Positions 2,325 through 50,315 of a stretch of 64,000 bases of DNA are shown here, piece after piece. Position 1 is the stretch's first letter; every line of letters begins with the position of its first letter. A program made the translations under genes and the position numbers. Origin of the DNA: Escherichia phage 4E8; the sequence record OQ689734.1; one strand, written 5' to 3'. The notes beneath the pieces are model-generated. The model was not told the DNA's origin. It worked only from the letters and a program-made list of their open reading frames with translations, and did no database searches.

Positions 2325-3866
2325 ATGTCATTAGATAAACAAATTTATGAAGCTCTAACTGGTAACAACCTTAGTGTAGACGAAAAGAAAGCACTATTGA
2401 ATATGTTGAAAGAGCGTGACCAATGGAGGAAGTATAATAGGATTTTGTCTTTCAAGGCGTATGACTTCCAAAAGAAATTTTATGCAGCAGGATTGAAGCA
2501 TCGCTTTAGATTCTTGTGTGCAGCGAACCGTGTTGGTAAATCTTATAGCGAGGCATACGAGTTTGCTTGTCATGTCACAGGTCGCTATCCAACTTGGTGG
2601 ACAGGATATAAATTTAAAAGACCTATCCTTGCATGGGCAGTTGGTATTACAGGGGATTCCACAAGGAAAGTATTGCAAAAGGAATTGTTTGGTACACCTA
2701 TCGGAAAGGATACAAATTTATTAGGGACAGGTGTCATTCCTCGTGATGCTATCGTCATTGACACGATAGAGCGAGATGGTAACAAACTTCAAATCGTACA
2801 AATCAAACATCAAAATGAAAGAGGAGAGTTTGACGGTTTAAGTACATTAGAATTCCGTTCAACCCAACAGGGTGAACACACATTGATGGGTGCAACAGTT
2901 GACTACATTTGGTTAGACGAAGAAGATCCATATGAATCTATGGCAATCTTCTCTCAGTGCGTAACACGTACACTTACAACTAAAGGTTTAGTTACTATTA
3001 CAGCTACACCAGAGAACGGTTTAACAGAGCTGGTGGATAAGTTTATGAAAGGTGAAGGAGATGAGAACACAGGTTCTCTGTATTTCCAGAATGCTTCTTG
3101 GTGGGATGCTCATGTAGATTTAGGTGGACATATCACTGACCAAGATATTAAAGACATGACTGAAGGTATCCCAACATGGCAGTTAGAGATGCGTTCAAAA
3201 GGTATGCCGTTGCTTGGTTCTGGTTTAATTTATGATGTATCAGATGACATGATTAAGTGTGATCCCTTTGAGATACCTGATACGTGGAAACGTGTTTGTG
3301 CTATTGATATTGGTATCGATCACCCGACAGCCGCTGTTTGGACAGCATATGATGCTAACACTGATACGATTTATGTTTATGACTGCTATAAAGAAGGTGG
3401 ATTTACTCCGGTGTATCATGCACCAGCTATTAATGGTCGTGGTCAGTGGATTCCAGTTATTCTTCCTCACGATGCCGATAATATTGAGAAGGGAAGTGGT
3501 TCGTCTGTTGCTCAATTCTATAAGAATGCAGGGGTTAATGTACAGAGTGAGACCTTCTACAACAAGATTGGAATGGATGGTAAGAAGAACTTCTTTGTAG
3601 AGCCGGGAATTACTGATATTCGTGAACGTATGATGTCAGGTCGTTTTAAAATCTTTAACATTGCTTCATGTGCTAAACTCTTTGAAGAGAAAGCTCGCTA
3701 TCACCGTAAGGTTGGCAAGATTGTTAAGGAACATGATGACTTGATGGATGCTATGCGATATTCAGCTTGTTCTGTAACACATCGTGGACGTAGTAAGCAT
3801 GATGCTAGTTATGGTAGTTCATCGCTTTATCAAGACAATATTAACAGATGGAATCAGACCTACTAA
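2325..3866 (+). CDS. terL: terminase large subunit
   Basis: 513 aa; Walker A-like FLCAANRVGKSY and Walker B-like IWLDEED in the N-terminal ATPase part; C-terminal nuclease-sized domain; located at the head of the morphogenesis module. Confidence 0.85.
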   Translation: MSLDKQIYEALTGNNLSVDEKKALLNMLKERDQWRKYNRILSFKAYDFQKKFYAAGLKHRFRFLCAANRVGKSYSEAYEFACHVTGRYPTWWTGYKFKRPILAWAVGITGDSTRKVLQKELFGTPIGKDTNLLGTGVIPRDAIVIDTIERDGNKLQIVQIKHQNERGEFDGLSTLEFRSTQQGEHTLMGATVDYIWLDEEDPYESMAIFSQCVTRTLTTKGLVTITATPENGLTELVDKFMKGEGDENTGSLYFQNASWWDAHVDLGGHITDQDIKDMTEGIPTWQLEMRSKGMPLLGSGLIYDVSDDMIKCDPFEIPDTWKRVCAIDIGIDHPTAAVWTAYDANTDTIYVYDCYKEGGFTPVYHAPAINGRGQWIPVILPHDADNIEKGSGSSVAQFYKNAGVNVQSETFYNKIGMDGKKNFFVEPGITDIRERMMSGRFKIFNIASCAKLFEEKARYHRKVGKIVKEHDDLMDAMRYSACSVTHRGRSKHDASYGSSSLYQDNINRWNQTY

Positions 3867-3931: not shown

Positions 3932-6175
3932 ATGGCTAAGAAGAAATTTAGTGAAGATGTTTTGGATGAATTACGCGTTGACCTTCAACGTCGATTCAAT
4001 TATGCTCAAGGTTATGTAGACTTAGCTGTAAAAGGCTATGCTCGTGAGGCTTGGGAATACTTCTATGGGAACCTTCCTGCTCCAGTTACTGCTGGTAGCT
4101 CTAGTTGGGTAGACCGTACGGTATGGGAATCAGTGAATGGTACGCTCCAAGATATCATTAACGTGTTCTGTTCTGGTGACGAAGCGGTAACTTTCGTAGC
4201 CGATAACCAAGAAGACAGTGATGCTGCTGACGTAGCCACTAAACTTGTCAACCAAATTTTGTTACGTGATAATCCGGGATACAATATTATCTCTTCAGCG
4301 GCACAAGAGTGTCTGGTTACACGTAACTCTTTTATTAAATATTATTGGGATGAACAGACTTCTACTCAAACAGAAGAAGCAGAGGGTGTTCCTCCGGAAG
4401 CTTTGGCTGCATATGTCCAAGGTTTAGAAGCTGGTGGGCTTCAAGATTTAGAAATCTTTACCACTGACAACGAAGATGGTACAGTGGATGTTAAAGTAAC
4501 TTACAAACAAACAGTAAAACGCGTTAAAGTAGAATATGTTCCTTCAGAACAGATTTTTGTTGACGAACATGCTACCTCTTTTGCAGATGCTCAGTATTTC
4601 TGTCATCGCACACGTAAATCTAAAGAAGATCTGGTTGCTATGGGCTTCCCTAAAGATGAAATTGAAGCTTTTAATGACTGGACTGATACAATGGACACCA
4701 CTCAATCTACTGTTGCATGGTCACGTACTGACTGGCGTCAGGATATAGATTCAGATATCGGTGTAGACACTGATGATATCGCTTCTATGGTTTGGGTTTA
4801 TGAACATTACATCCGTACTGGTGTACTGGATAAGAATAAAGAAGCAAAACTCTATCAGGTTATTCAAGCAGGCGAGCATATTCTCTCTTGTGAAGAAGTA
4901 ACTAGCATTCCTTTTGTAACATTCTGCCCTTATCCTATTCCGGGTTCATTCTATGGACAGTCGGTTTATGATATTACTAAAGATATTCAGGATTTGCGTA
5001 CCGCTTTGGTTCGTGGTTATATCGATAACGTAAACAATGCTAACTATGGTCGTTATAAGGCTCTTGTAGGTGCTTATGACCGTCGTTCTCTACTGGATAA
5101 CCGTCCGGGTGGTGTAGTAGAAATGGAGCGTCAGGATGCGATTGATCTCTTCCCTTACCACAATCTACCTCAGGGTATTGATGGCTTACTAGGAATGTCA
5201 GATGAGTTGAAAGAGACTCGTACTGGTGTTACTAAACTTGGTATGGGTATTAACCCTGATGTGTTTAAGAATGATAACGCATATGCAACTGTTGGATTGA
5301 TGATGAATGCTGCTCAGAACCGTCTCCGTATGGTCTGTCGTAACATTGCTCACAACGGTATGGTTGAATTGATGCGTGGTATTTATAATTTAGTCCGAGA
5401 AAATGGTGAGGTTCCTTTACAAGTACAAACCCCTCGTGGTATGGTTCAGGTTCATCCTAAACAACTGCCTGCTCGTCACAATCTACAAGTTGTTGTAGCT
5501 ATCTCTCCTAGCGAGAAATCAGAACGTGCACAGAAACTCATTAGTCTGAAGCAATTAATTGCTGCTGATGCTCAGTTAGCACCTCTGTTTACTCTGGAGC
5601 AAGATCGTTACATGACTGCACAGATCTTCGAGTTGATGGGAATTAAAGACACTCACAAATACTTAATGCCTCTGGAACAGTATCAACCGCCAGAACCTTC
5701 TCCGATGGAAATCCTCCAGCTTGAGATGACTAAAGCACAGGTTGAGAACGTACAGGCTTCTTCTCAGAAGATGATTGCTGATGCATTCGACCAGCGTGAA
5801 CGCACTACGTTTGAACAGCAGAAAGCTGCGGACGAGTTCAGCTTACGTCAAGAAGAACTGCAATTTAAGCAAGAGAATGCTGCTGATCAGATGACTTTGG
5901 AGAATCGTAAAGAAGACAACAGTGCTACACTTGAACAGGCTAAGCACAAGTTGGCTCTGCTCCAGCAACAGGTCCGTCAGTATGAATCTGTACTTAAAGA
6001 ATTGCAGATGACTCTTAATCATCAGGTCGATGTTGAGAAAGTTGCAAATCAGGCTAAGATTCAAGATAAGACTTTGGAACTCCAAAAGAAAGAAGCAAAT
6101 GAAACTAAGAAAGAACAGCAGAGTTCAATCAAAGATTCACGGATTCCTAACCGTCGTCTTGGTAGTAGAAAATAA
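3932..6175 (+). CDS. portal protein (positional call)
   Basis: 747 aa ORF immediately after terL, good SD; C-terminal coiled-coil/charged tail; no specific motif recognised. Confidence 0.55.
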   Translation: MAKKKFSEDVLDELRVDLQRRFNYAQGYVDLAVKGYAREAWEYFYGNLPAPVTAGSSSWVDRTVWESVNGTLQDIINVFCSGDEAVTFVADNQEDSDAADVATKLVNQILLRDNPGYNIISSAAQECLVTRNSFIKYYWDEQTSTQTEEAEGVPPEALAAYVQGLEAGGLQDLEIFTTDNEDGTVDVKVTYKQTVKRVKVEYVPSEQIFVDEHATSFADAQYFCHRTRKSKEDLVAMGFPKDEIEAFNDWTDTMDTTQSTVAWSRTDWRQDIDSDIGVDTDDIASMVWVYEHYIRTGVLDKNKEAKLYQVIQAGEHILSCEEVTSIPFVTFCPYPIPGSFYGQSVYDITKDIQDLRTALVRGYIDNVNNANYGRYKALVGAYDRRSLLDNRPGGVVEMERQDAIDLFPYHNLPQGIDGLLGMSDELKETRTGVTKLGMGINPDVFKNDNAYATVGLMMNAAQNRLRMVCRNIAHNGMVELMRGIYNLVRENGEVPLQVQTPRGMVQVHPKQLPARHNLQVVVAISPSEKSERAQKLISLKQLIAADAQLAPLFTLEQDRYMTAQIFELMGIKDTHKYLMPLEQYQPPEPSPMEILQLEMTKAQVENVQASSQKMIADAFDQRERTTFEQQKAADEFSLRQEELQFKQENAADQMTLENRKEDNSATLEQAKHKLALLQQQVRQYESVLKELQMTLNHQVDVEKVANQAKIQDKTLELQKKEANETKKEQQSSIKDSRIPNRRLGSRK

Positions 6176-6421: not shown

Positions 6422-7503
6422 TGGCAAATGATTATATTGACCCGAACGATTTTAAATCTTTCCTCCAACTAGACGACTTAAAAGGCTCCTTCAAAGAAGA
6501 GCTTAGTCAATTAGAATCAGAACGTGAACCAGAAGTGAACATTGATGATGAATTCCCAGAACAGTCTGAGACTTTTGATCTTGATGCTTCCGACCTTCTC
6601 GGTGATGACGACACGTTAGCGTTCGAAGATGAAGATGGTTGGGAAGATCGTGAAGAGGAAGGCGAAGAAGAAGAGGAAGAGTCTGAGTTCTCTGATGAAG
6701 ACGATGAAGAAGATGATTCCGGTGAAGCAGATCACGATGAAGCTGCTAACAGTGATGAAGATGGCGAAGAAGGTGAAGTCTTTGACGTAGATTATGAAAC
6801 TGTTATCACCCTTCCTGATGGTCGTGAGATGACTATTGAAGAGTTGTCTAATGGCTATTTGACTGGTGCAGAAATGTCCGAACGTGAGACTACTTTGCAG
6901 CGTCATGTTGAAGCTTTTGAAGAACGTGTTGCTGGCTTGGGGGATGTATTAGAACTAGCTGCCCTAGAAGCAGACCGAGTAATTGAAGATTACAACGGTT
7001 TTGATTGGGACAAACTCGCACAAGAAGATCCTCAAGCTTATGTAGAAAATAAACGTTTCTTAGAAAAATATACAGCTCGTCGCCAACAGCTTGAACAAGC
7101 TCAGCTTAAAATCAAGCAAGAAGCACTAGCAAAAGAACAACAGCTCTTCCAAGCTAAATGTACTGAGTGTGTAAGCGTACTTAAACGTGAGATTCCTAAT
7201 TGGGATGACAACTTGTATCAGAACCTGATGCAGTATGCAATCGACTTAGGTGCTACAGAAGAAGAAGTGCTGAAAGAGAACCGTCCGTCAATCTTCCTAG
7301 CTCTACACAAAGCATACCAGTTTGATAAAGGTAAGCAGCAGGTGATGGCTAAGATTAAACGTCCCGGCTCTCCACGCAAGGTTGTGAAGTCCGATGCTTC
7401 TAAGTCTCGTTCTTCCAATACGCCAGACAACGCTAAGGTTGCCAAGGCATTCTCAGAGGGTCGTATTCGTCACGAAGACGCATTTAAGTATCTCGTAGAT
7501 TAA
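6421..7503 (+). CDS. putative head scaffolding protein
   Basis: 360 aa, extremely acidic D/E-rich N-terminal half and coiled-coil C-terminal half; sits between portal and major capsid. Confidence 0.5.
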   Translation: MANDYIDPNDFKSFLQLDDLKGSFKEELSQLESEREPEVNIDDEFPEQSETFDLDASDLLGDDDTLAFEDEDGWEDREEEGEEEEEESEFSDEDDEEDDSGEADHDEAANSDEDGEEGEVFDVDYETVITLPDGREMTIEELSNGYLTGAEMSERETTLQRHVEAFEERVAGLGDVLELAALEADRVIEDYNGFDWDKLAQEDPQAYVENKRFLEKYTARRQQLEQAQLKIKQEALAKEQQLFQAKCTECVSVLKREIPNWDDNLYQNLMQYAIDLGATEEEVLKENRPSIFLALHKAYQFDKGKQQVMAKIKRPGSPRKVVKSDASKSRSSNTPDNAKVAKAFSEGRIRHEDAFKYLVD

Positions 7504-7543: not shown

Positions 7544-8599
7544 ATGGCAAATCCAACTTTATTTGTATCTTACGACCAGAATGGTAAAAAACTTTCTTTT
7601 GCTAACTGGATTTCTGTCCTGTCTCCGCAAGACACTCCGTTTGTGTCTATGACTGGTAAAGAGTCTATCAATCAGACTATTTTCAGCTGGCAAACCGATG
7701 CTCTGGCGAGCGTAGATGCTAACAACGCCCACGTCGAAGGCTCTCGTGCTGAAGACGGCGAAATGAAACCTACTGTAATCAAGTCCAACGTTACTCAGAT
7801 CCTGCGTAAAGTTGTTCGTGTTTCTGATACTGCTAACACCACCGCTAACTACGGTCGTGGTCGTGAACTGATGTATCAGCTGGAGAAGAAAGGTAAAGAG
7901 ATTAAACGTGACCTCGAGAAAATCCTGCTGTCCGGTCAGGCTCGTACCGATATTCTGGCAGACCAGTATCTGACCAACTCTGCAACTGATCCTGCTGTTG
8001 TAGGTAAGAATGATACATCAGCTGCTCGTAAGACTGGTGCTTTCCAGTTCCTGTGTGCACACAATGGTGTTGCTGGTGGTGTTGTTAAGAAAGAAGATGG
8101 TCCTGCTGACCCGGATACTGGTGCAGTAACTGTTAAAGTTGCACAGAATGCTTCTAACCCGACTACTAACATCGGTTTTGATGAAGCTGATATCTTTGAT
8201 ATGACTCTGCAATTGTATACCGCTGGTTCTGAAGCAGACATCATCATGATTAACCCTGCTCACGCTAGTATCTTTGCTAAGCTTCAGGAAAACTCTGTTG
8301 GTTCTCGTCAGCGTATCTTTGAGAACACCAAACAGTTCATCTATGAAGTTAACAGCATCACTGACCCGCTGGGCCAGAGCTATAAAATCATCGTTAACCG
8401 TTGGATGCCTGCTGATGCAGTTTACTTCTTCCGCAGCTCTGACTGGACTCAGATGGTTCTTCGTGCTCCGAAACGTACTGAACTGGCTAAAGATGGTTCT
8501 TACGAGAAGTGGATGATTGAAATGGAAGTTGGTCTGCGTCACCGCAACCCGTATGCTTCCGGCGTTCTGTTCACTGCTGCGGGAAAGGCGGCGGCGTAA
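7544..8599 (+). CDS. major capsid protein (zero-frame product)
   Basis: 351 aa after scaffold; highly biased, highly-expressed-like codon usage (ctg, cgt, ggt); strong terminator downstream; carries a frameshift site near its 3' end. Confidence 0.6.
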   Translation: MANPTLFVSYDQNGKKLSFANWISVLSPQDTPFVSMTGKESINQTIFSWQTDALASVDANNAHVEGSRAEDGEMKPTVIKSNVTQILRKVVRVSDTANTTANYGRGRELMYQLEKKGKEIKRDLEKILLSGQARTDILADQYLTNSATDPAVVGKNDTSAARKTGAFQFLCAHNGVAGGVVKKEDGPADPDTGAVTVKVAQNASNPTTNIGFDEADIFDMTLQLYTAGSEADIIMINPAHASIFAKLQENSVGSRQRIFENTKQFIYEVNSITDPLGQSYKIIVNRWMPADAVYFFRSSDWTQMVLRAPKRTELAKDGSYEKWMIEMEVGLRHRNPYASGVLFTAAGKAAA

Positions 8600-43936: not shown

Positions 43937-44146
43937 TTATTTAACCTCAACAATCCCAAGTTTCCAAACATATCCGGGAGCAGAGTCCTGTACGGCTCCA
44001 TATTGAAGAACAGTATCACAAGCATCACTATCTATACCATCAAGCATCAGCTGACCACGAGTAGGACGTTCTTTGTAATAGGTTACTTTGACTTCTGTGT
44101 CATGAGTCCGTTCACTAAAGCATAGACTTAATTTGTAGATTCTCAT
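43937..44146 (-). CDS. hypothetical small protein
   Basis: 69 aa ORF. Confidence 0.35.
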   Translation of the reverse strand: MRIYKLSLCFSERTHDTEVKVTYYKERPTRGQLMLDGIDSDACDTVLQYGAVQDSAPGYVWKLGIVEVK

Positions 44147-44622
44147 TCTAAAACCCTTTCCTCTAAATCATAAAAGATTTGATTTGTCCCATTGTTTTCA
44201 ACAAGCACTGTCCCGTTATCTAACAGGGTAGTAACTTGTGAATAAGGAATGTTCTTTAACATCAGAGCATTGATGGTTGGCTTATTTTTGAAGTAAGCGA
44301 CCGGCTCAACGTAGAAGGAAATCCCACGACTTCCTTTGATTGGTGTGCTTGAAGACAGAACCCAAATCGTTTCTGGCTTGTCTACTTCCTTTTCAACACC
44401 AACCTCAACAAGCGAGTCAGCAGCGAAACCTACAGGACGACTAGAAGAGCCAAGCGCCCGAATAAATCCCGGTAATTTCGACATATTAGACCAACTACCA
44501 GTGTTTTCATTAAACACAGGTCTTACATCACCATATGCCCAAACCAGATTATCACAGTCACGGGCTATGTATTTGGTCCAATCAGGAACATCATACTCTC
44601 TTCCTTCAAAAATAGCTTTCAT
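44143..44622 (-). CDS. hypothetical protein
   Basis: 159 aa ORF. Confidence 0.4.
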   Translation of the reverse strand: MKAIFEGREYDVPDWTKYIARDCDNLVWAYGDVRPVFNENTGSWSNMSKLPGFIRALGSSSRPVGFAADSLVEVGVEKEVDKPETIWVLSSSTPIKGSRGISFYVEPVAYFKNKPTINALMLKNIPYSQVTTLLDNGTVLVENNGTNQIFYDLEERVLE

Positions 44623-44931
44623 TTAGATAACCTTGTGCTTGTAGATGCTAGGGTTGAAGTAATGCAACCAGTTTATGTATTGTTTCTGTTCAAGGTAGTG
44701 TCTGCAATCATGACAAAAAGCATGACCCAAACCTGTTTCCTCGTTCAGCTTGAAGTTGATAAGAAGCTTCTGCTTTTGACAGAAGCTACATGCTTTAGTG
44801 GGCTTCACGTAGTGCATCCCATGAGATTGGGAAAAGTTTACGAAGCTCTTCATCAACAGTTGATGCGAACACTCGTACTTCATACTGAGCATGGTCGGAC
44901 AGTCGCTGACGACATAACTCTGACCAGCCAT
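44623..44931 (-). CDS. hypothetical Cys-rich (zinc-binding-like) protein
   Basis: 102 aa; CSFCQK...CHDCRH; 5' end overlaps the thyX 3' end in another frame. Confidence 0.35.
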   Translation of the reverse strand: MAGQSYVVSDCPTMLSMKYECSHQLLMKSFVNFSQSHGMHYVKPTKACSFCQKQKLLINFKLNEETGLGHAFCHDCRHYLEQKQYINWLHYFNPSIYKHKVI

Positions 44932-45445
44932 ATAAAGAACCTGTCCACACCCACTCAGTGATCATACCTTGAGGTAGAACGAATCGGGCTTGCTCTGGAG
45001 CAATAAACTTAATCAACTCATCATATGACTCAAGAGCTGTTTCATATGCCCGATTAATCAGAACTAGTGCAGAGTTTTGCGCTCCTGTGGTGAGGAGATT
45101 CCCCGCACCTGCATGGAGGTCCGAAGGTCTTTCAAAAATCTCTTTAGGGATGAAGAGTTCAACTGCTCCATCTTTATACCGCCGGGACATTTCGTTCCAC
45201 GAGAATCCAACTTGATGCTTGCCCAGCTGTCTCGCAATTGCGATTGGCGCTTTGCATCGGAAGCTAATTGTCGGATGGCGGAATGGTGTGACATGCTTTT
45301 CTCTGGCAAGGAACTTGATAAGGCGTTCATCTCGTTCATTTAACTCTCCTTCACGAGTAACCCCAAAGGAAACTCGAGCTGCATTAACAACAGATTTATC
45401 AGAACCCATTGCTTCAATTAGTGTTGCTTGTAATTGTTCGTTCAT
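44795..45445 (-). CDS. thyX: flavin-dependent thymidylate synthase (ThyX) homolog with divergent signature motif
   Basis: 216 aa; AARVSFGV...HVTPFRHPTISFRCKAPIAIARQL...FSWNEMSRRY and SDHAQYEV are ThyX-like, but the canonical RHR of the RHRx7S motif reads KHQ. Confidence 0.7.
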   Translation of the reverse strand: MNEQLQATLIEAMGSDKSVVNAARVSFGVTREGELNERDERLIKFLAREKHVTPFRHPTISFRCKAPIAIARQLGKHQVGFSWNEMSRRYKDGAVELFIPKEIFERPSDLHAGAGNLLTTGAQNSALVLINRAYETALESYDELIKFIAPEQARFVLPQGMITEWVWTGSLYGWSELCRQRLSDHAQYEVRVFASTVDEELRKLFPISWDALREAH

Positions 45446-45459
45446 CCTTGAATTCTTCC

Positions 45460-45675
45460 TTAGTAATGAATCTTTTTATAAACCATGTTGCTTCCACTTT
45501 CTGTTTCAATCCCTTTCTGGATTGTAATCTTAGAAGCACCAGTGTTAACAATTTTTAAAGCTCGCTTAAAGCGGCGAGCCTCTTTCCGTGTGGAGTATGT
45601 TGAGAAGCTAGGGATTGTGCTATCAAAATTAAACCACTTAACTACCCAAAAAGTAATCCAAGGTTTCTTTTCCAT
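45460..45675 (-). CDS. small protein, member of a 4-copy paralog family
   Basis: 71 aa; shares W..V...TRKEAR..K..LK and C-terminal ...HY with 47542..48163 genes. Confidence 0.4.
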   Translation of the reverse strand: MEKKPWITFWVVKWFNFDSTIPSFSTYSTRKEARRFKRALKIVNTGASKITIQKGIETESGSNMVYKKIHY

Positions 45676-45676
45676 A

Positions 45677-45949
45677 TTAAATACCTTTCAGAGCCGTGTC
45701 TAAAAATGCACGGAGATTAGATTCAGTTTGCATACCTGATAAACTATAATGAGCACCACTATTCTTATCAGGTACGACAAAGGCTGGGATACTGCGAACA
45801 CCATATTCAATGGCTCGCTCTCGACCATCACCTTCAGAGATATTTACTTCTTCAACTTCTACACTGTAGTCAGCCACAACCTTCTTAAACACAGGAGCCA
45901 TAGCTGCACATGGAGCACAGGAATTACTATAAAACTTAATTACTTTACT
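45677..45949 (-). CDS. thioredoxin/glutaredoxin-like protein (CxxC); start set to MSKVIKFY
   Basis: FYSNSCAPCAAMAPVFKKV resembles the thioredoxin WCGPC active-site region. Confidence 0.55.
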   Translation of the reverse strand, partial: SKVIKFYSNSCAPCAAMAPVFKKVVADYSVEVEEVNISEGDGRERAIEYGVRSIPAFVVPDKNSGAHYSLSGMQTESNLRAFLDTALKGI

Positions 45950-46142
45950 CATTCTATTCCTTGTTAATAAACAGATTGATATGACGCTGGGTAGCAGGAA
46001 CAACAATAAAAGATTTATACTGACCTTTTGCTAAGTCATGAGCAATCTTCTTTGTCTGACCAAGACCCATCACACAGCCACTAACGATAATGGCATGTGC
46101 TTGTAATTCTTCAGGTAGGTTTAGTTTCACTCTTTGGGTTCC

Positions 46143-46328
46143 TTATAGCATACAAAGAATAATAACAAGAGGTAGTGTTATAGCAAAATGTACCAGAACA
46201 ACACTACCAAGCTTGATAGCTTTAACATCCTCTTCTGCTGGGTTTTCTTTAATTGCTAAATTTCGAGCTTTATATATAACAGTACCAACTATTAATGACC
46301 ACACGGCCCACACAATCAGTGAAATCAT
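46143..46328 (-). CDS. small two-TM membrane protein (paralog 1)
   Basis: 61 aa; two hydrophobic segments; similar to the upstream gene (AIVWSVWAILVGGIVY / LIVWAVWSLIVGTVIY, KENP). Confidence 0.4.
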   Translation of the reverse strand: MISLIVWAVWSLIVGTVIYKARNLAIKENPAEEDVKAIKLGSVVLVHFAITLPLVIILCML

Positions 46329-46337
46329 ATCAAACCC

Positions 46338-46559
46338 TTATGCAGTCAACAGGTGGAGAAGGAAAGGAATGACAACAGAGAAAACTACCAGAGCAATGCT
46401 ACCATGTTTAATAGGTTTAGCATCATTCGGATTCTCTTTAAGCATCTGTTTCTGAGCCAGATAAACGATACCACCAACAAGAATTGCCCACACAGACCAT
46501 ACGATTGCTGAAAACATATTCATATCCTTATAAAGAAGTTCGCCCCACCTCTTAAACAA
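46338..46559 (-). CDS. small two-TM membrane protein (paralog 2)
   Basis: 73 aa; see paralog 1. Confidence 0.4.
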   Translation of the reverse strand: MFKRWGELLYKDMNMFSAIVWSVWAILVGGIVYLAQKQMLKENPNDAKPIKHGSIALVVFSVVIPFLLHLLTA

Positions 46560-46580
46560 AGAGACAGGGCGGAGGTTTGA

Positions 46581-47156
46581 TTAGTAAGACACATCACCAC
46601 TGGAGTGGGACATGTTGCTCTTGACGAAGTAACAGAACTTGCCAAGACCTTCATTGATTTCTTGAAGCATACTCTGATCAACTGGATAGGTGCACAAGTC
46701 TGAATCAAACTCGTCCATCTTCTCAATGATACACATAAGAGTCATGCACATGTCGGAAAGCATGCCGTCCATGTCGAGATCAGCGTTACCTTCTCGGAAC
46801 CAAGCATGACCTAAATAATTACTAGCAGTAGCATCCACTTTAACACAATGAAAGCGCATACGCTCTGCTATTCGGTCGCCTGCCTCACGAGCATAATCTT
46901 CTAGTTCATCGAACATACCATGAACACCTTGGAAACCAGCTCCAGAGACGTTCCAGTGGTAGTTCTTTGCTTTGATGTGTAGAAGTTCAAGATTAGCTTG
47001 CACACCACACAAGATGTGTTCTAAGCTGTTACCGCTAATCAGTTTATTCATTCCCTCAAGACGAGAGATAGAAGAGTCAGCAGTAGAGAATGGGTTGCTA
47101 GAACCCACTCGTGTTAGTTCTGGTAAGTCGAAGACATTATTATGCATTAGGTGCAT
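46581..47156 (-). CDS. Dps/ferritin-like protein
   Basis: 191 aa; YHWNVSGAGFQGVHGMFDELEDYAREAGDRIAERM closely parallels the Dps ferroxidase-site region (HWN..G..F...H......D..AER). Confidence 0.65.
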   Translation of the reverse strand: MHLMHNNVFDLPELTRVGSSNPFSTADSSISRLEGMNKLISGNSLEHILCGVQANLELLHIKAKNYHWNVSGAGFQGVHGMFDELEDYAREAGDRIAERMRFHCVKVDATASNYLGHAWFREGNADLDMDGMLSDMCMTLMCIIEKMDEFDSDLCTYPVDQSMLQEINEGLGKFCYFVKSNMSHSSGDVSY

Positions 47157-47469
47157 CCCCTTCTAAGTTAGTTGAATTAGCTACATTACGAGCAATGTTA
47201 TCCATGACCTGTTGTGTGATAACAATGCAATTCTGAGGGTCTACTGATTTAGAACGCCCCATTTCAGGGTCATAGACTTTGACTCGCTTGGCTGTTGAGC
47301 CAGTAACTTGCAACACTTTGAGAAGATAACCTTGATTTCCAATAGACCATGCAACAACATCACGATTCTTGATATAACGACCAAGCATATCACGATGATA
47401 GAACTGCTGCATAACTTTAGCTTTGCTAATCTCTTCGGCTGGCGGAGCCACTTTACTCAAATCTAACAT
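47140..47469 (-). CDS. hypothetical protein
   Basis: 109 aa ORF. Confidence 0.4.
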   Translation of the reverse strand: MLDLSKVAPPAEEISKAKVMQQFYHRDMLGRYIKNRDVVAWSIGNQGYLLKVLQVTGSTAKRVKVYDPEMGRSKSVDPQNCIVITQQVMDNIARNVANSTNLEGDAPNA

Positions 47470-47541
47470 TTCACTCTCTCCTGTTCAATACAATATTCTT
47501 ATACTGTATATACATTTGAGAGTGATCATATCTACTACCAA

Positions 47542-47751
47542 TCAGTAGTAAATTACTTTAGACATAAAAGAACCAGTGTTAGGGTCTTCATACCAGCGAT
47601 GTATGTCAGCGCTTTTTACTATTGTGCCCAGAATCTTCAACTGTTTCTTAGCAATACGAGCCTCTTTGCGAGTGTCAAACAATTTGATGCTATCTTTTCT
47701 CGTGTGTTGATCAAGATCCCAAACAACACGAATCGCCCACATCTTTTTCAT
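47542..47751 (-). CDS. small protein, paralog family member
   Basis: 69 aa; W.IRVVW...TRKEARIAKKQLK...YY. Confidence 0.4.
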   Translation of the reverse strand: MKKMWAIRVVWDLDQHTRKDSIKLFDTRKEARIAKKQLKILGTIVKSADIHRWYEDPNTGSFMSKVIYY

Positions 47752-47966
47752 TAGTAGTGCACCTTTCCGCTGATATAAATACGGCCTGAGGTATACTCAT
47801 AGCCCTTGAGAATCTTAACAGAGGTAGTGGAGCCATCGTTTAGTGCACAGATTGACTTCTTAAGATTGCGTGCATCTTCTCGTGTCTTCTGGTAGGTCAT
47901 GGTCACACCCCCACTCTTCCACTCTGTTTTAACTAACCAAACTATTTTCATAAGACCTGCTCTCAT
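47751..47966 (-). CDS. small protein, paralog family member
   Basis: 71 aa; IVWLVK...TREDARNLKK...HY; 1-nt stop/start overlap with neighbours. Confidence 0.4.
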   Translation of the reverse strand: MRAGLMKIVWLVKTEWKSGGVTMTYQKTREDARNLKKSICALNDGSTTSVKILKGYEYTSGRIYISGKVHY

Positions 47967-48163
47967 TAGTAGTACACCTTGCTTCCAGCCATGAACGCCC
48001 CTGTCGAGCTTATCATGGCTTTGCTGATAGTAACTTTCTTACACCGTAAACATACCTTCCAATTCTTTTTACAGATTCGAGCTTCTTGTCGAGTGTTACA
48101 AAAAATAGCCGAAGATATTTCTTGAGTGTTGTTGTCATAAACACGAACACACCACTTTTTCAT
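47966..48163 (-). CDS. small protein, paralog family member
   Basis: 65 aa; W.VRVY...TRQEARICKK...YY. Confidence 0.4.
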   Translation of the reverse strand: MKKWCVRVYDNNTQEISSAIFCNTRQEARICKKNWKVCLRCKKVTISKAMISSTGAFMAGSKVYY

Positions 48164-48366
48164 TTTACTAAACCCTTCATGTAATCGTAGAGGTTGTTAG
48201 AAGCTTTGCCCCATTCGACATGCTTCTTATCCATGTAATCCTTAAAGATTTCTCTATTATTTTCGACACACGTATCATACTGCTGACACGCTCTGCCAAA
48301 TGTCATAGCTGTTAACTGAACCTCAGTAGTTAAACCTTTAAGTTCTTGAAACTCTTCTTCAGTCAT
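48160..48366 (-). CDS. hypothetical small protein
   Basis: 68 aa ORF. Confidence 0.35.
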   Translation of the reverse strand: MTEEEFQELKGLTTEVQLTAMTFGRACQQYDTCVENNREIFKDYMDKKHVEWGKASNNLYDYMKGLVK

Positions 48367-48900
48367 TTAGACACCCTTAGAAGCAACTACACCCTCGCTA
48401 CCATTATAGCGACCCTTAACTGCATAGGAATGTTCACCGGCATGTGAATGCTCAAACATTACCATCTGACCGACACGCATACCAGCACGAACACGTAAGC
48501 TGTGGTGCTTGGTTACGTTGTGGAATTCGAACGTCAGCTTGCTATTATTAAACCCAGCGTCTGCCCACCCGGCGTGAAGGTGGTTCAAGCCACAACGAGC
48601 CATTGAGGAGCGGAGTACAAACAGACTTGAGAGGTTATCTGGAAGGTTAAATTCTTCCATTGAGTGAGCTAAGAAGAACTGTCCCGGAGTGATGACAATA
48701 CCATCTTCAGGGATTTTCACCTCTTTCCACTTGAGGTTTTCTTTAGCATCAATATCAACAATGCCGTCAGCCTGTTCTTCAACAAGGATAGTATCACCAA
48801 TACGGATATCCACACTAGCAGCGTTAACATATTTATGCTCCGCATCTAAAAAGCCATTATCAATAACGCTGTGTAATTCTTGAGAACCTAAAAGACTCAT
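48367..48900 (-). CDS. dCTP deaminase family (Dcd/dUTPase-fold) protein
   Basis: 177 aa; AASVDIRIG, LRSSMARCGL, HAGWADAG and GRYNGSEGVVASKG parallel conserved Dcd segments. Confidence 0.65.
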   Translation of the reverse strand: MSLLGSQELHSVIDNGFLDAEHKYVNAASVDIRIGDTILVEEQADGIVDIDAKENLKWKEVKIPEDGIVITPGQFFLAHSMEEFNLPDNLSSLFVLRSSMARCGLNHLHAGWADAGFNNSKLTFEFHNVTKHHSLRVRAGMRVGQMVMFEHSHAGEHSYAVKGRYNGSEGVVASKGV

Positions 48901-50315
48901 GAGTTTCTGTTTCCTTGTACAGATGATGCCAAATTGTTAATCATGTTACGAGCTGTTTCACGAGACAGTGTAACACCTGCTAAGTTACTATCAAGTTCAC
49001 CAACCATTTCACGAGCAGCAGATCGTAGTTCTGCACCAAGTGCAGTATTAGAGTGAGCCAAACCATTACGACGACTATAAGGGCGAGGGGCTTCGTTAGC
49101 GTCATTAGCTAAAGATGCAAAGCCAGTACGAGCAGCTTCACGAGCCGCTATCGCTGCTACTTGATCTTCCATATGGGTTGGCACATCACCAACTTCTACA
49201 CGTTCTATATCACTAGCACGTAGACCCTGAACAACAGAGCTTACTGTTTCCCATGAACGACGAGAACGCTGTAAATCTCCCATTGACGGAGAAGAAGCAG
49301 GACGAATAGTTACCCCACCTGTGTCATGAGTTACATGCCATGTATGGTTGTGGGTGTCCGTCCCAGAAGATCGTGCACTACCAAAACTGCCAGTGAAAGT
49401 GTCACGTCTGTTAGTTCCTGGAGTCCAAGGTTGTGTGATTGCTTCAGCACCGATAGTAACTAACCCACTAGACCATTCTGTCTGTAGGTTAACTTCTTCA
49501 TCCAGATAAATATGACCTACTTCCGGAGGAATATTTAATGCAACCTCCATCATCTTCAAGGTATAATGACGACGTTGATTCTGATACAAGTTTACACCAG
49601 CCATAGGTCCAACTAGATCACTGATAAGATGAACTTCTGGCTCACCAAAAGCACCCATCGCAAGGTGCATGTATTCAGTAGAACTGCTATAAACTGCAAC
49701 AGTTGCTTCAGGCCACTTTTTGTGAACATATTTCATTTCACGACTTGATACTACAGGAATGTCACGAGTATACGACATTGCAAACAAACCTTCATCTGAC
49801 ACATACATGTCATCAAGAGTCATGAAACCCTGACAGATCATAGGGAAGCGACCACATAGAGTGTTCATATCCAGAGGAAGGTTAATCATCATCTGAATCT
49901 TCACTTCATCAATCTCAATTTCCAGAATCTCTTGGAAAATGAAAAGTGCATCAGCGTAAGTTGCTCCGGTGATAGGCTGAGCTAAGCGAGATGTAACTTG
50001 AAGCCCCTTACTCTCTGTCCAAGACAAGAAGTTGTCAAGGAACAGTGCAGCATTACTTACGTTAGCAGGGCTGTTTTCCTGACGAGTGTTCCAACGTAAT
50101 CCTCCTTGAACTAGGAAGATATCAACATCATTCGGAGTTCGGTTTTGGAAGAACGTATCACGAATAGCACCACCTGCAATAACAGGGTAGATACCATCAG
50201 GAACTACGTTGTCTCTGATCAGATTGCGAATCAGATCAAGCCCTACGCTGAGGGCTTCTCCTTCTTGAAGGTTTAATTCAGACAATGGAATCTTAATCAT
50301 TTCTACATTTTCCAA
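48897..50315 (-). CDS. nucleotidyltransferase (Pol-beta superfamily) domain protein with long C-terminal extension
   Basis: 472 aa; [23 protein letters not shown] fits hG[GS]x(9-13)DxD of minimal nucleotidyltransferases (CCA-adding/poly(A) polymerase head); C-terminal ~250 aa unassigned. Confidence 0.45.

Follow-up and report, generated by a model that had tools for sequence, protein, structure and literature searches.

Introduction

What are the four small, look-alike genes of Escherichia phage 4E8, and what might they do for the phage? Phage 4E8 is a phiEco32-like E. coli podophage (Gordonclarkvirinae), and the window analysed here is a 64,000-nucleotide stretch of its DNA (OQ689734.1). Phages of this group are reported to be unusually resistant to restriction-modification and to most of the defence systems against which they were tested, without a known mechanism (PMC11990801). 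They are also common, broad-host-range candidates for therapy. An earlier note on the window, made from its letters alone, had singled out four ORFs of 65-71 aa as paralogs that share a short motif, three of them in an overlapping tandem, and had pointed out that multi-copy small genes in early or middle regions of phages are often host-takeover or anti-defence factors. We asked whether these ORFs truly form a family, how they are arranged and inherited among related phages, and which function their features would best fit.

Results

All four ORFs are present on the minus strand, and we named them A, B, C and D. Copy A (45460..45675; 71 aa, pI 10.2) stands alone between a thioredoxin gene (45677-46006) and thyX (44795-45445). 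The other three follow one another: D (47966..48163; 65 aa, pI 9.8, five Cys) is the first gene of the array, C (47751..47966; 71 aa) comes next and B (47542..47751; 69 aa) is the last, and they fill the ortholog slots of phiEco32 gp71, gp70 and gp69, respectively. Two start codons are possible for copy C, the ATG at 47966 (71 aa) or a second in-frame ATG at 47951 (MKIVW...), which yields 66 aa and is the point from which the other family members align. No fifth copy was found when a profile of the four proteins was run against the six-frame translation of the window. A helical-looking gene of 68 aa between dcd and D (48160..48366, minus strand) is not a family member, as it has no match to the family HMM. 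Its TGA overlaps the start ATG of D by 4 nt (ATGA), and the gene is present in NJ01, WFI101126 and IMEP8 and absent from phiEco32, SGF2 and EP335. The window matches no RNA family in Rfam, and a promoter and terminator scan of positions 45000-49000 gave counts at chance level.

The kinship of the four ORFs was measured by comparing pairwise Smith-Waterman scores with those of 2000 shuffles. For A-B, A-C, A-D and B-D, z was 10.6-12.8 and none of the shuffles reached the observed score; z was 5.4 for B-C (2/2000) and 3.2 for C-D (19/2000). Scores that lie 3-13 SD above the shuffles exclude a similarity due to composition alone, the outcome that had been named beforehand as the one that would overturn the claim of paralogy. 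In addition, each protein matches the same family, PHROG 4939 (E = 8.7e-23 for A, 5.5e-28 for B, 1.3e-22 for C and 8.6e-26 for D), over profile positions 1-67 or 2-67 of 67, as do all 31 members of a diverse family alignment. Shuffle scores and profile matches together establish the four ORFs as diverged paralogs (~30% identity) of one lineage-restricted family.

Pfam-A gave no match at threshold (the best, Ribosomal_L13e, scored 14.1 bits against a cut-off of 24.9 and was hit by one member only), and no Pfam family recurred among the 31 diverse members. NCBIfam matches fell far under their cut-offs and PADLOC returned none. Profile searches of PDB sequences hit Sec3, CELF RRMs and ribosomal proteins, all at E >= 0.3, and we rejected these as chance. 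When 1.84 billion representatives were searched exhaustively with a profile, only 31 clusters were found at E<=1e-3, nearly all of them 64-79 aa long; at 90% identity the family forms 48 clusters, one of which (P0003, named for Escherichia phage 4E8) is identical to D. A search for related loci with B alone retrieved only NJ01, KBNP1711 and phiEco32. The family is confined to phiEco32-like podophages.

What do its members have in common? The elements that the earlier note had recognised, namely a Trp-bearing strand, a TR..AR..KK stretch and a C-terminal Tyr, are real in both the four-way and the family alignments. Among the four copies W10, T29, R30, A33, R34, K37 and the C-terminal Tyr are invariant. 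Across 122 unique family sequences W5, T27, R28 and R32 are conserved in 100%, K35 in 99%, the terminal Tyr (Y69) in 97% and A31 in 95%, and a basic residue is found at position 52 in 98%, at position 8 in 93% and at position 36 in 91%. The four proteins, of ~8 kDa, are strongly basic (pI 9.8-10.2, net charge +7 to +9). AlphaFold models built from independent alignments for A (pLDDT 83.9) and B (pLDDT 86.8) both show the order beta-beta-alpha-beta-beta, from which we infer that each copy would adopt an alpha/beta fold of one helix and an antiparallel sheet of four strands; the conserved Tyr tail is modelled with low confidence. The order beta-alpha-beta-beta-alpha-beta of RRM or ferredoxin-like domains, with aromatic RNP1/RNP2 motifs on the sheet, was not found. 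Nothing informative appeared among the best 50-60 structural neighbours in PDB or BFVD. The models do resemble some two-layer alpha/beta folds built on a four-stranded antiparallel sheet, namely the PsaD core, ERH (enhancer of rudimentary) and the palm/RRM-like half-domains of nucleotidyl cyclases and reverse transcriptases, at generic scores, with 3-13% identity and no shared motif, a likeness that justifies no functional inference. We also considered a zinc site in D, whose five Cys residues include a CLRC, and rejected it because other D alleles do not share these residues.

The three clustered copies are tied together at their ends. As had been noted, successive genes overlap by a single nucleotide: the junctions read TAATG, with base 47966 shared by D and C and base 47751 shared by C and B. 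In this head-to-tail array the last codons of each copy hold the Shine-Dalgarno sequence of the next. That of C (AAGGTG, 47975..47980, minus strand) lies in the C-terminal K-V codons of D and that of B (GGAAAGGTG, 47760..47768, minus strand) in the C-terminal G-K-V codons of C, each 8 nt before the ATG. The arrangement is general, since a T[AG]ATG overlap is found at every internal array junction in all 16 sources (the window, 13 phage genomes and two metagenomic contigs), and AAGGT or GAGGT precedes all of these junctions except that of phiEco32 D (AAGAT). With the Shine-Dalgarno inside the upstream copy and a one-base overlap, D-C-B would be read as one translationally coupled unit. The coupling suspected earlier thus gains support from the conservation of both elements in all allelic types, and the cluster bears the sequence hallmarks of what is likely a coupled tandem gene array.

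When would this unit be expressed? The array lies between dcd, which encodes dCTP deaminase, and the equivalent of P68, a promoter for the phage sigma factor. In phiEco32 the gp36-sigma promoter upstream of gene 68 has been mapped experimentally and its consensus is known, and genes 69 onward belong to the early class in both phiEco32 and SU10 (PMC8948821, PMC4281155). A match to this consensus, AATGTATATA (47507..47516, minus strand), sits directly downstream of B and, judged by its sequence, marks the early/middle boundary right after that gene. B, C and D are upstream of this first gp36-dependent promoter, matching the early-class position in phiEco32, and by synteny with that phage (D-C-B = gp71-70-69) they would occupy the distal end of the early transcript. 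The early or middle placement first suggested for these genes is therefore supported by synteny. Copy A is an insertion of its own within the middle cluster, in a slot that in relatives is empty or holds an HNH endonuclease or a different allele. The array comes directly after dcd in every one of the Gordonclarkvirinae examined, and the solitary copy, where there is one, lies between the thioredoxin gene and thyX; diverged metagenomic relatives keep the order dcd, array, gp68 homolog, Dps-like gene. No other multi-copy gene set occupies a conserved early locus in Gordonclarkvirinae.

The locus is constant and its content is not. Array copy number ranges from 1 to 4 among relatives: one metagenomic contig (L010) carries four tandem copies, and another (L013) and Salmonella phage 7-11 carry one. 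D is absent from UKE3, Bas88, NC-B, SU7, PAS59 and EcoN5, A is absent from phiEco32, SGF2, IMEP8, EP335, SU7 and PAS59, and B is truncated in myPSH2311, which makes A, B and D individually dispensable. B and C occur together in 15 of 16 Gordonclarkvirinae sources (the window and 15 phage genomes), B being truncated in the sixteenth. The single homolog of phage 7-11 is distant, lacks the C-terminal Tyr and has a different neighbourhood: it lies ~10 kb from the cluster of dcd, the thioredoxin gene and thyX, which contains no family member, and is close to Sir2 and methyltransferase genes.

Identity profiles per 100 nt against UKE3, Bas88, NC-B, NJ01 and phiEco32 delimit a hypervariable or recombinant block at 47500..48400, which also contains the 68-aa gene; against the closest relatives, identity drops to 0-84% here, compared with 95-100% on both flanks. 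UKE3, Bas88 and NC-B match the window at 95-100% on the flanks of the array and not within it; conversely, B shares 92-98% of its nucleotides with NJ01 and phiEco32, whose flanks reach only 62-85%. At the amino-acid level B is 97-99% identical to its counterparts in NJ01 and SGF2, D differs from the KBNP1711 copy by one residue and C, from MKIVW to its end, matches that of KBNP1711 exactly. Allele types are also reassorted, B1 being found with C1 or C2, and C1 with D1, with D2 or with no D. From such mosaics, whole alleles have evidently been swapped between phages by recombination, and the array grows and shrinks. For the individual copies, dN/dS was 0.05-0.5 in 57 of 58 comparable pairs, which is purifying selection; gene-wide positive selection was not seen.

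Discussion

Which activity would suit such proteins? We tentatively favour the view, possible though still short of probable, that they are individually dispensable accessory proteins that bind polyanions or nucleic acids. The T-R-x-x-A-R-x-x-K-K stripe of the helix, the basic residues of beta1 and beta3, the Trp and the C-terminal Tyr would form a common polyanion-binding surface, and helical periodicity is what suggests that the conserved residues share one face. Its most likely ligand would be nucleic acid, and the variable beta1-beta2 hairpin and helix-beta3 loop could endow the paralogs or alleles with distinct specificities. From early infection onward the proteins might then, in an accessory role, modulate nucleic-acid transactions of the host or of the phage. 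An acidic protein or a small anionic ligand would suit such a conserved basic surface just as well, and it counts against this view that the distant homolog of phage 7-11 has no C-terminal Tyr and other neighbours.

Could they instead be inhibitors that bind proteins, each paralog or allele hitting a different host immunity or housekeeping protein, so that the array is an anti-defence island? We consider this rather unlikely, even though the locus behaves as a hotspot for accessory genes, with copy gain and loss, recombinational allele replacement and HNH insertions nearby. Expression is probably early, as synteny with phiEco32 indicates (PMC8948821, PMC4281155), the reported broad resistance of Gordonclarkvirinae (PMC11990801) would be explained, and the low-confidence Tyr tail could be a partner-binding peptide. 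Against it, PADLOC, Pfam and PDB gave no match, the family is not homologous to any known anti-defence protein, gene-wide positive selection is lacking, and a basic stripe common to all paralogs is easier to reconcile with a single kind of ligand than with many unrelated protein targets. DNA-mimic restriction inhibitors such as Ocr and ArdA are strongly acidic. The four proteins, with their pI of ~10, do not have the strongly acidic surface of Ocr, ArdA, Ugi or p56, and the sole structural hint of a mimic, a Foldseek match to p56, is not significant (E 1.2). That match, together with the suggestion of dU-DNA in the BASEL paper, had brought an inhibitor of uracil-DNA glycosylase to mind; we rejected this candidate on three counts: the match lacks significance, the proteins are basic, and ThyX is encoded by the phage. 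A role as sponges for nucleotide-derived immune signals, in which oligomers would sequester cyclic nucleotides through the conserved Arg/Lys and aromatic residues, is very improbable: small size, invariant Arg/Lys and Trp/Tyr and accessory-locus behaviour are generic features, the best 50-60 structural neighbours in PDB or BFVD offer no informative match, and the idea is purely speculative.

Neighbourhood and gene order invite two further explanations, both of which we regard as improbable. The proteins might be accessory subunits or regulators of the adjacent enzymes of nucleotide metabolism or replication (dCTP deaminase, nucleotidyltransferase, thioredoxin, ThyX), given the constant positions of the array directly after dcd and of the solitary copy between the thioredoxin gene and thyX, and an order around the array that is kept even in diverged metagenomic relatives. 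Phage 7-11, however, clusters dcd, the thioredoxin gene and thyX without a family member, and the copies are dispensable and reassort freely whereas the enzymes are highly conserved. Alternatively, B, C and D could be obligate subunits of one hetero-oligomer, held at fixed stoichiometry by translational coupling. Overlapping, coupled genes in a conserved order and the near-constant pairing of B with C would agree with this, as would the predicted secondary structure, in which one face of the sheet is left uncovered by the single helix and may need a partner. Yet the free reassortment of alleles, the absence of D from at least six genomes and the existence of one-copy and four-copy arrays all speak against fixed partners. 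Finally, the chance that the likeness is compositional or that the ORFs are not genes is negligible, in view of the shuffle tests, the full-length PHROG match of each ORF, dN/dS <1 in the annotated frame, conserved start contexts and Shine-Dalgarno sequences, and confident AlphaFold models.

Arrays of small, fast-evolving early accessory genes are familiar from the class I genes of T7, the host-takeover module of SPO1 and anti-CRISPR loci. The locus described here resembles them in that its ORFs are small, probably early, individually dispensable, variable in copy number and mosaic between related phages. It differs in that its genes are mutual paralogs with an invariant basic motif and a regular coupled junction, whereas those loci mostly hold unrelated neighbours. 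Nearer at hand, phiEco32 gp69-71 and their orthologs in NJ01, KBNP1711, SU10 and ECBP2 have the same locus, order and 1-nt overlaps and are annotated as hypothetical; B is 91% identical to phiEco32 gp69, and phiEco32 has no A copy and carries C and D alleles that differ from those of the window. The A-slot copy NJ01_076 is labelled 'putative ABC transporter', a label that nothing here supports. The family is already catalogued, in a PHROG 4939 record that has no function, structure or description and from which the array, its slots and alleles and the motif are absent. It seems to have escaped attention in print: the literature searched contains no discussion of phiEco32 gp69-71, of their paralogs or of the variable regions.

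Our analysis defines four ortholog slots, their allele types, natural knock-outs and a motif for mutagenesis (W5, T27, R28, R32, K35 and the C-terminal Tyr), which make the family directly testable in the BASEL isolates that infect K-12. At its boldest, and this we think quite unlikely, the family would be a novel class of small basic proteins that bind nucleic acids or neutralise defences, with an array that underlies the broad resistance of Gordonclarkvirinae to defence systems and restriction-modification and with paralogs and alleles of different specificities shuffled as cassettes by recombination. If the proteins are ordinary nucleic-acid-binding accessory proteins, the gain would be one of routine annotation; if they are defence antagonists, they would constitute a new family of inhibitors.

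Four homologous genes at two loci

When positions 45000-49000 of the window were compared with a phage collection by megablast, 98 records matched, nearly all of them phiEco32-group Escherichia and Shigella phages, the best being NC-B, vB_EcoP-101114UKE3, IME267 and Bas88 at ~95% identity. RefSeq taxonomy places the matching phages in the Gordonclarkvirinae, genera Kuravirus, Suseptimavirus and Nieuwekanaalvirus. The minus strand carries every gene in the half of the window that holds the family. There, an earlier note had described four small paralogous ORFs with shared motifs, a description that is real and accurate: A (45460-45675, 71 aa), B (47542-47751, 69 aa), C (47751-47966, 71 aa) and D (47966-48163, 65 aa) all lie exactly where it had placed them. 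At the array locus, a nucleotidyltransferase gene and dcd (48367-48900) precede a non-family gene of 68 aa (48160-48366), which is followed by D, C and B; a spacer of 72 nt then separates B from a homolog of phiEco32 gp68 (47140-47469) and a Dps-like gene (46581-47156). Farther downstream come a thioredoxin gene (45677-46006), the solitary copy A and thyX (44795-45445). The Dps/ferritin-like gene 3' of gp68 is named 'integrase' in UKE3 (6609-7175), IME267, EcoN5, IMEP8 and other records, likely a mis-annotation.

The shared motifs stand up in a four-way alignment, which is invariant at M1, W10, T29, R30, A33, R34, K37, I52 and the C-terminal Tyr, with 29-30% identity to A. Against 2000 shuffles of one partner, Smith-Waterman z-scores are 10.6-12.8 for A-B, A-C, A-D and B-D, and 5.4 and 3.2 for the weakest pairs, B-C and C-D. 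Each protein also matches PHROG 4939 separately, over the whole profile (E 1e-22 to 1e-28). Because the weakest pairs are joined via the other copies and each protein matches this independent profile, the similarity reflects homology, not composition. When the 64-kb window was translated in all six frames, a four-sequence profile found no fifth copy, the next best match having E 0.039.

Other local likenesses are found nearby on the minus strand. Two adjoining small predicted membrane proteins (46143-46328 and 46338-46520) are mutual paralogs (45% identity over 58 residues, E 2e-17), a second tandem duplication within the same middle-gene region as copy A. A 69-aa ORF (43937-44146) resembles residues 108-139 of an adjoining 159-aa ORF (44143-44622; 41% over 32 residues, E 5e-6), perhaps as the product of a third local duplication or as a copied domain.

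The family is already catalogued, without characterisation, as PHROG 4939 and is thus not new to databases. An indexed search returned 48 clusters (90% identity) whose proteins are 48-73 aa long; the contigs among the matches reach ~77 kb, and the named matches are all Escherichia phages of the phiEco32 group. With a 37-sequence profile, HMMER was run exhaustively over 1.84 billion representatives and gave 31 proteins at E <= 1e-3, all of 65-79 aa save two long ones (2348 and 1518 aa). Pfam, NCBIfam and PADLOC scans of the family gave no match near threshold, and a profile search of PDB sequences reached only E 0.3.

Copy gain, copy loss and allele exchange

We applied a family HMM to 15 Gordonclarkvirinae genomes, three metagenomic contigs and Salmonella phage 7-11. 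Copy number varies among relatives, from one to four copies, with A and D absent from some. The B and C slots are both filled in the window and in all but one of the 15 Gordonclarkvirinae genomes. The one is myPSH2311 (68.7-kb Kuravirus clade), where a deletion at 3447-3750 cuts B short after ~20 codons and takes out the gp68 homolog; this phage is a natural knock-out in which B and gp68 are dispensable. The D slot is empty in UKE3, Bas88, NC-B, SU7, PAS59 and EcoN5, NC-B having a clean deletion of D together with the 68-aa gene. For each of A, B and D there is at least one relative in which the gene is absent or truncated, while C is present in every Gordonclarkvirinae genome examined.

Slot A holds an A1 allele in the window, UKE3, Bas88 and NC-B, an unrelated-looking A2 allele in NJ01, WFI101126, KBNP1711 and EcoN5, and nothing in phiEco32, SGF2 and IMEP8. 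In EP335 (7852-8334), SU7 and PAS59 (both 5586-6077) an HNH homing endonuclease occupies this trx-thyX position, and EcoN5 carries an HNH gene (2315-2824) between dcd and the array, so that each of the two family loci coincides with an insertion hotspot. The A-slot member of NJ01 (NJ01_076, 8070-8273) is named 'putative ABC transporter', likely another mis-annotation. Among the contigs, L010 has a tandem array of four, in which a novel type lies between C and B; L011 has three diverged copies after dcd, and L013 has one. Phage 7-11 has a single weak homolog (E ~7e-6), which keeps K-T-R-A-E-A-R-A-H-K-K but ends in KKVR.

Alleles have also moved between backbones. Per 100 nt, the window flanks are mostly 92-100% identical to UKE3, Bas88 and NC-B, but across 47500-48400 identity falls to 0-84%. 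B is 92-98% identical in nucleotides to its counterparts in the Kuravirus phages NJ01 and phiEco32; the flanks of these two phages share only 62-85% identity with the window. D and C differ from those of KBNP1711 by one and zero amino acids, respectively. The window is thus a mosaic of a Suseptimavirus/NC-B-like backbone at 95-100% identity, a Kuravirus-type B and KBNP1711-type C and D. Allele B1 is paired with C1 (window, KBNP1711) or C2 (phiEco32, NJ01, SGF2), and C1 with D2 (window, KBNP1711), D1 (EP335) or no D (NC-B), a reassortment that reflects cassette exchange by recombination. The D allele common to the window and KBNP1711 contains five cysteines, with a CLRC motif among them; it is unlikely to bind metal, since other D alleles lack Cys at these positions.

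Within slots, Nei-Gojobori dN/dS lies at 0.04-0.50 in 57 of the 58 pairs that have dS < 1.2; the one outlier, window B vs phiEco32 B, has 1 synonymous and 6 non-synonymous changes behind it. This marks the ORFs as real genes whose constraint is purifying and moderately relaxed, and at the whole-gene level no arms-race signature appears within slots.

A probably coupled repeat unit and its predicted timing

The 1-nt overlaps reported previously are present: the D stop and C start have base 47966 in common, and the C stop and B start base 47751 (both TAATG). The D start and the 68-aa gene's stop have 4 nt in common (ATGA). At 8 nt before each downstream ATG, the Shine-Dalgarno sequence is embedded in the K-V codons of the preceding copy: AAGGTG for C (47975-47980, minus, in the end of D) and GGAAAGGTG for B (47760-47768, minus, in the end of C). 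In 16 sources (the window, 13 phage genomes and two metagenomic contigs), every internal junction has a T[AG]ATG overlap, and all but one are preceded by AAGGT or GAGGT, phiEco32 D having AAGAT. In B, which comes last, and in the solitary A, the (K)V/I-x-Y protein end is retained but written with other codons (AAAGTA, AATGTT, AAGATT); the motif is therefore constrained at the protein level, with the ribosome-binding site superimposed on it in internal copies. This repeat unit also explains how copies can be cleanly gained and lost by unequal exchange.

The spacer after B contains AATGTATATA (47507-47516, minus), which agrees with the single-element consensus tAATGTAtA of promoters recognised by the phiEco32 sigma factor gp36; one such promoter, P68, was mapped experimentally upstream of gene 68 (PMC8948821; PMC4281155). 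The exact core AATGTATA occurs seven times in the window vs 2.7 expected from shuffles, the other sites being 9184, 26280, 35909, 35981, 38624 and 42688. The copy after B is the predicted counterpart of P68, and a sigma-70-like TTTACT-16-TATGAT (47552-47525) lies just upstream of it. The tandem genes of phiEco32 are gp71, gp70 and gp69, and in SU10 CDS 69-125 are classed early "like phiEco32", with read-through into middle genes. By synteny with phiEco32, D-C-B would be the last early genes and A a middle gene. Small variable early genes are a familiar theme in phages.

Predicted fold and possible functions

All four proteins are strongly basic (pI 9.8-10.2, net charge +7 to +9). Across 122 unique family sequences (B numbering), W5, T27, R28 and R32 are 100% conserved, K35 99%, the C-terminal Y69 97%, A31 95% and H51 68%, and a basic residue is found at position 52 in 98%, 8 in 93% and 36 in 91%. 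AlphaFold2 models built with family alignments are confident and concordant for A (pLDDT 83.9; strands 6-16 and 23-27, helix 30-43, strands 47-58 and 63-65) and B (pLDDT 86.8; strands 2-11 and 21-25, helix 28-40, strands 45-56 and 60-63). The most variable, gap-rich parts are the beta1-beta2 hairpin (12-20) and the helix-beta3 loop (40-47). T27 is the predicted helix N-cap; the spacing of R28, R32, K35/K36 and K39 (i, i+4, i+7/8, i+11) puts them on one helix stripe, and A31 is in register with positions 34, 38 and 41, which are hydrophobic and face the sheet. Helical periodicity, rather than model coordinates, suggests that the conserved residues form one surface. The predicted fold is a generic two-layer alpha/beta sandwich that carries no functional label; the matches listed from a BFVD structure search are confined to the family itself and to uncharacterised proteins from related phages (SE131, GAP52, Aeromonas LAh_8, Morganella MP2).

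What the genomes show is an array, duplicated, recombining and probably coupled, whose small basic proteins have an invariant motif in common. We tentatively favour, at somewhat less than even odds, a common polyanion-binding surface with nucleic acid as the most likely ligand, given the high net charge, the four-turn Arg/Lys stripe beginning at the helix N-terminus, and the conserved basic residues on beta1 and beta3 beside two invariant aromatics. The variable loops would tune the specificity of each copy. The main rival, in which they would inhibit host proteins of defence or housekeeping, agrees with the hotspot-like behaviour of the array locus, and we consider it possible but on balance unlikely.

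An action with the adjacent nucleotide-metabolism enzymes is improbable, being weakened by phage 7-11, whose homolog has Sir2 and methyltransferase genes, not dcd, for neighbours. We give little credence to an obligate B-C-D complex: alleles reassort freely, copies are lost, and cassette exchange argues against tightly co-evolving heteromeric interfaces. A sponge for nucleotide signals is pure speculation and very improbable. The family offers a well-defined, experimentally tractable set of candidates in a phage group reported to evade bacterial immunity.
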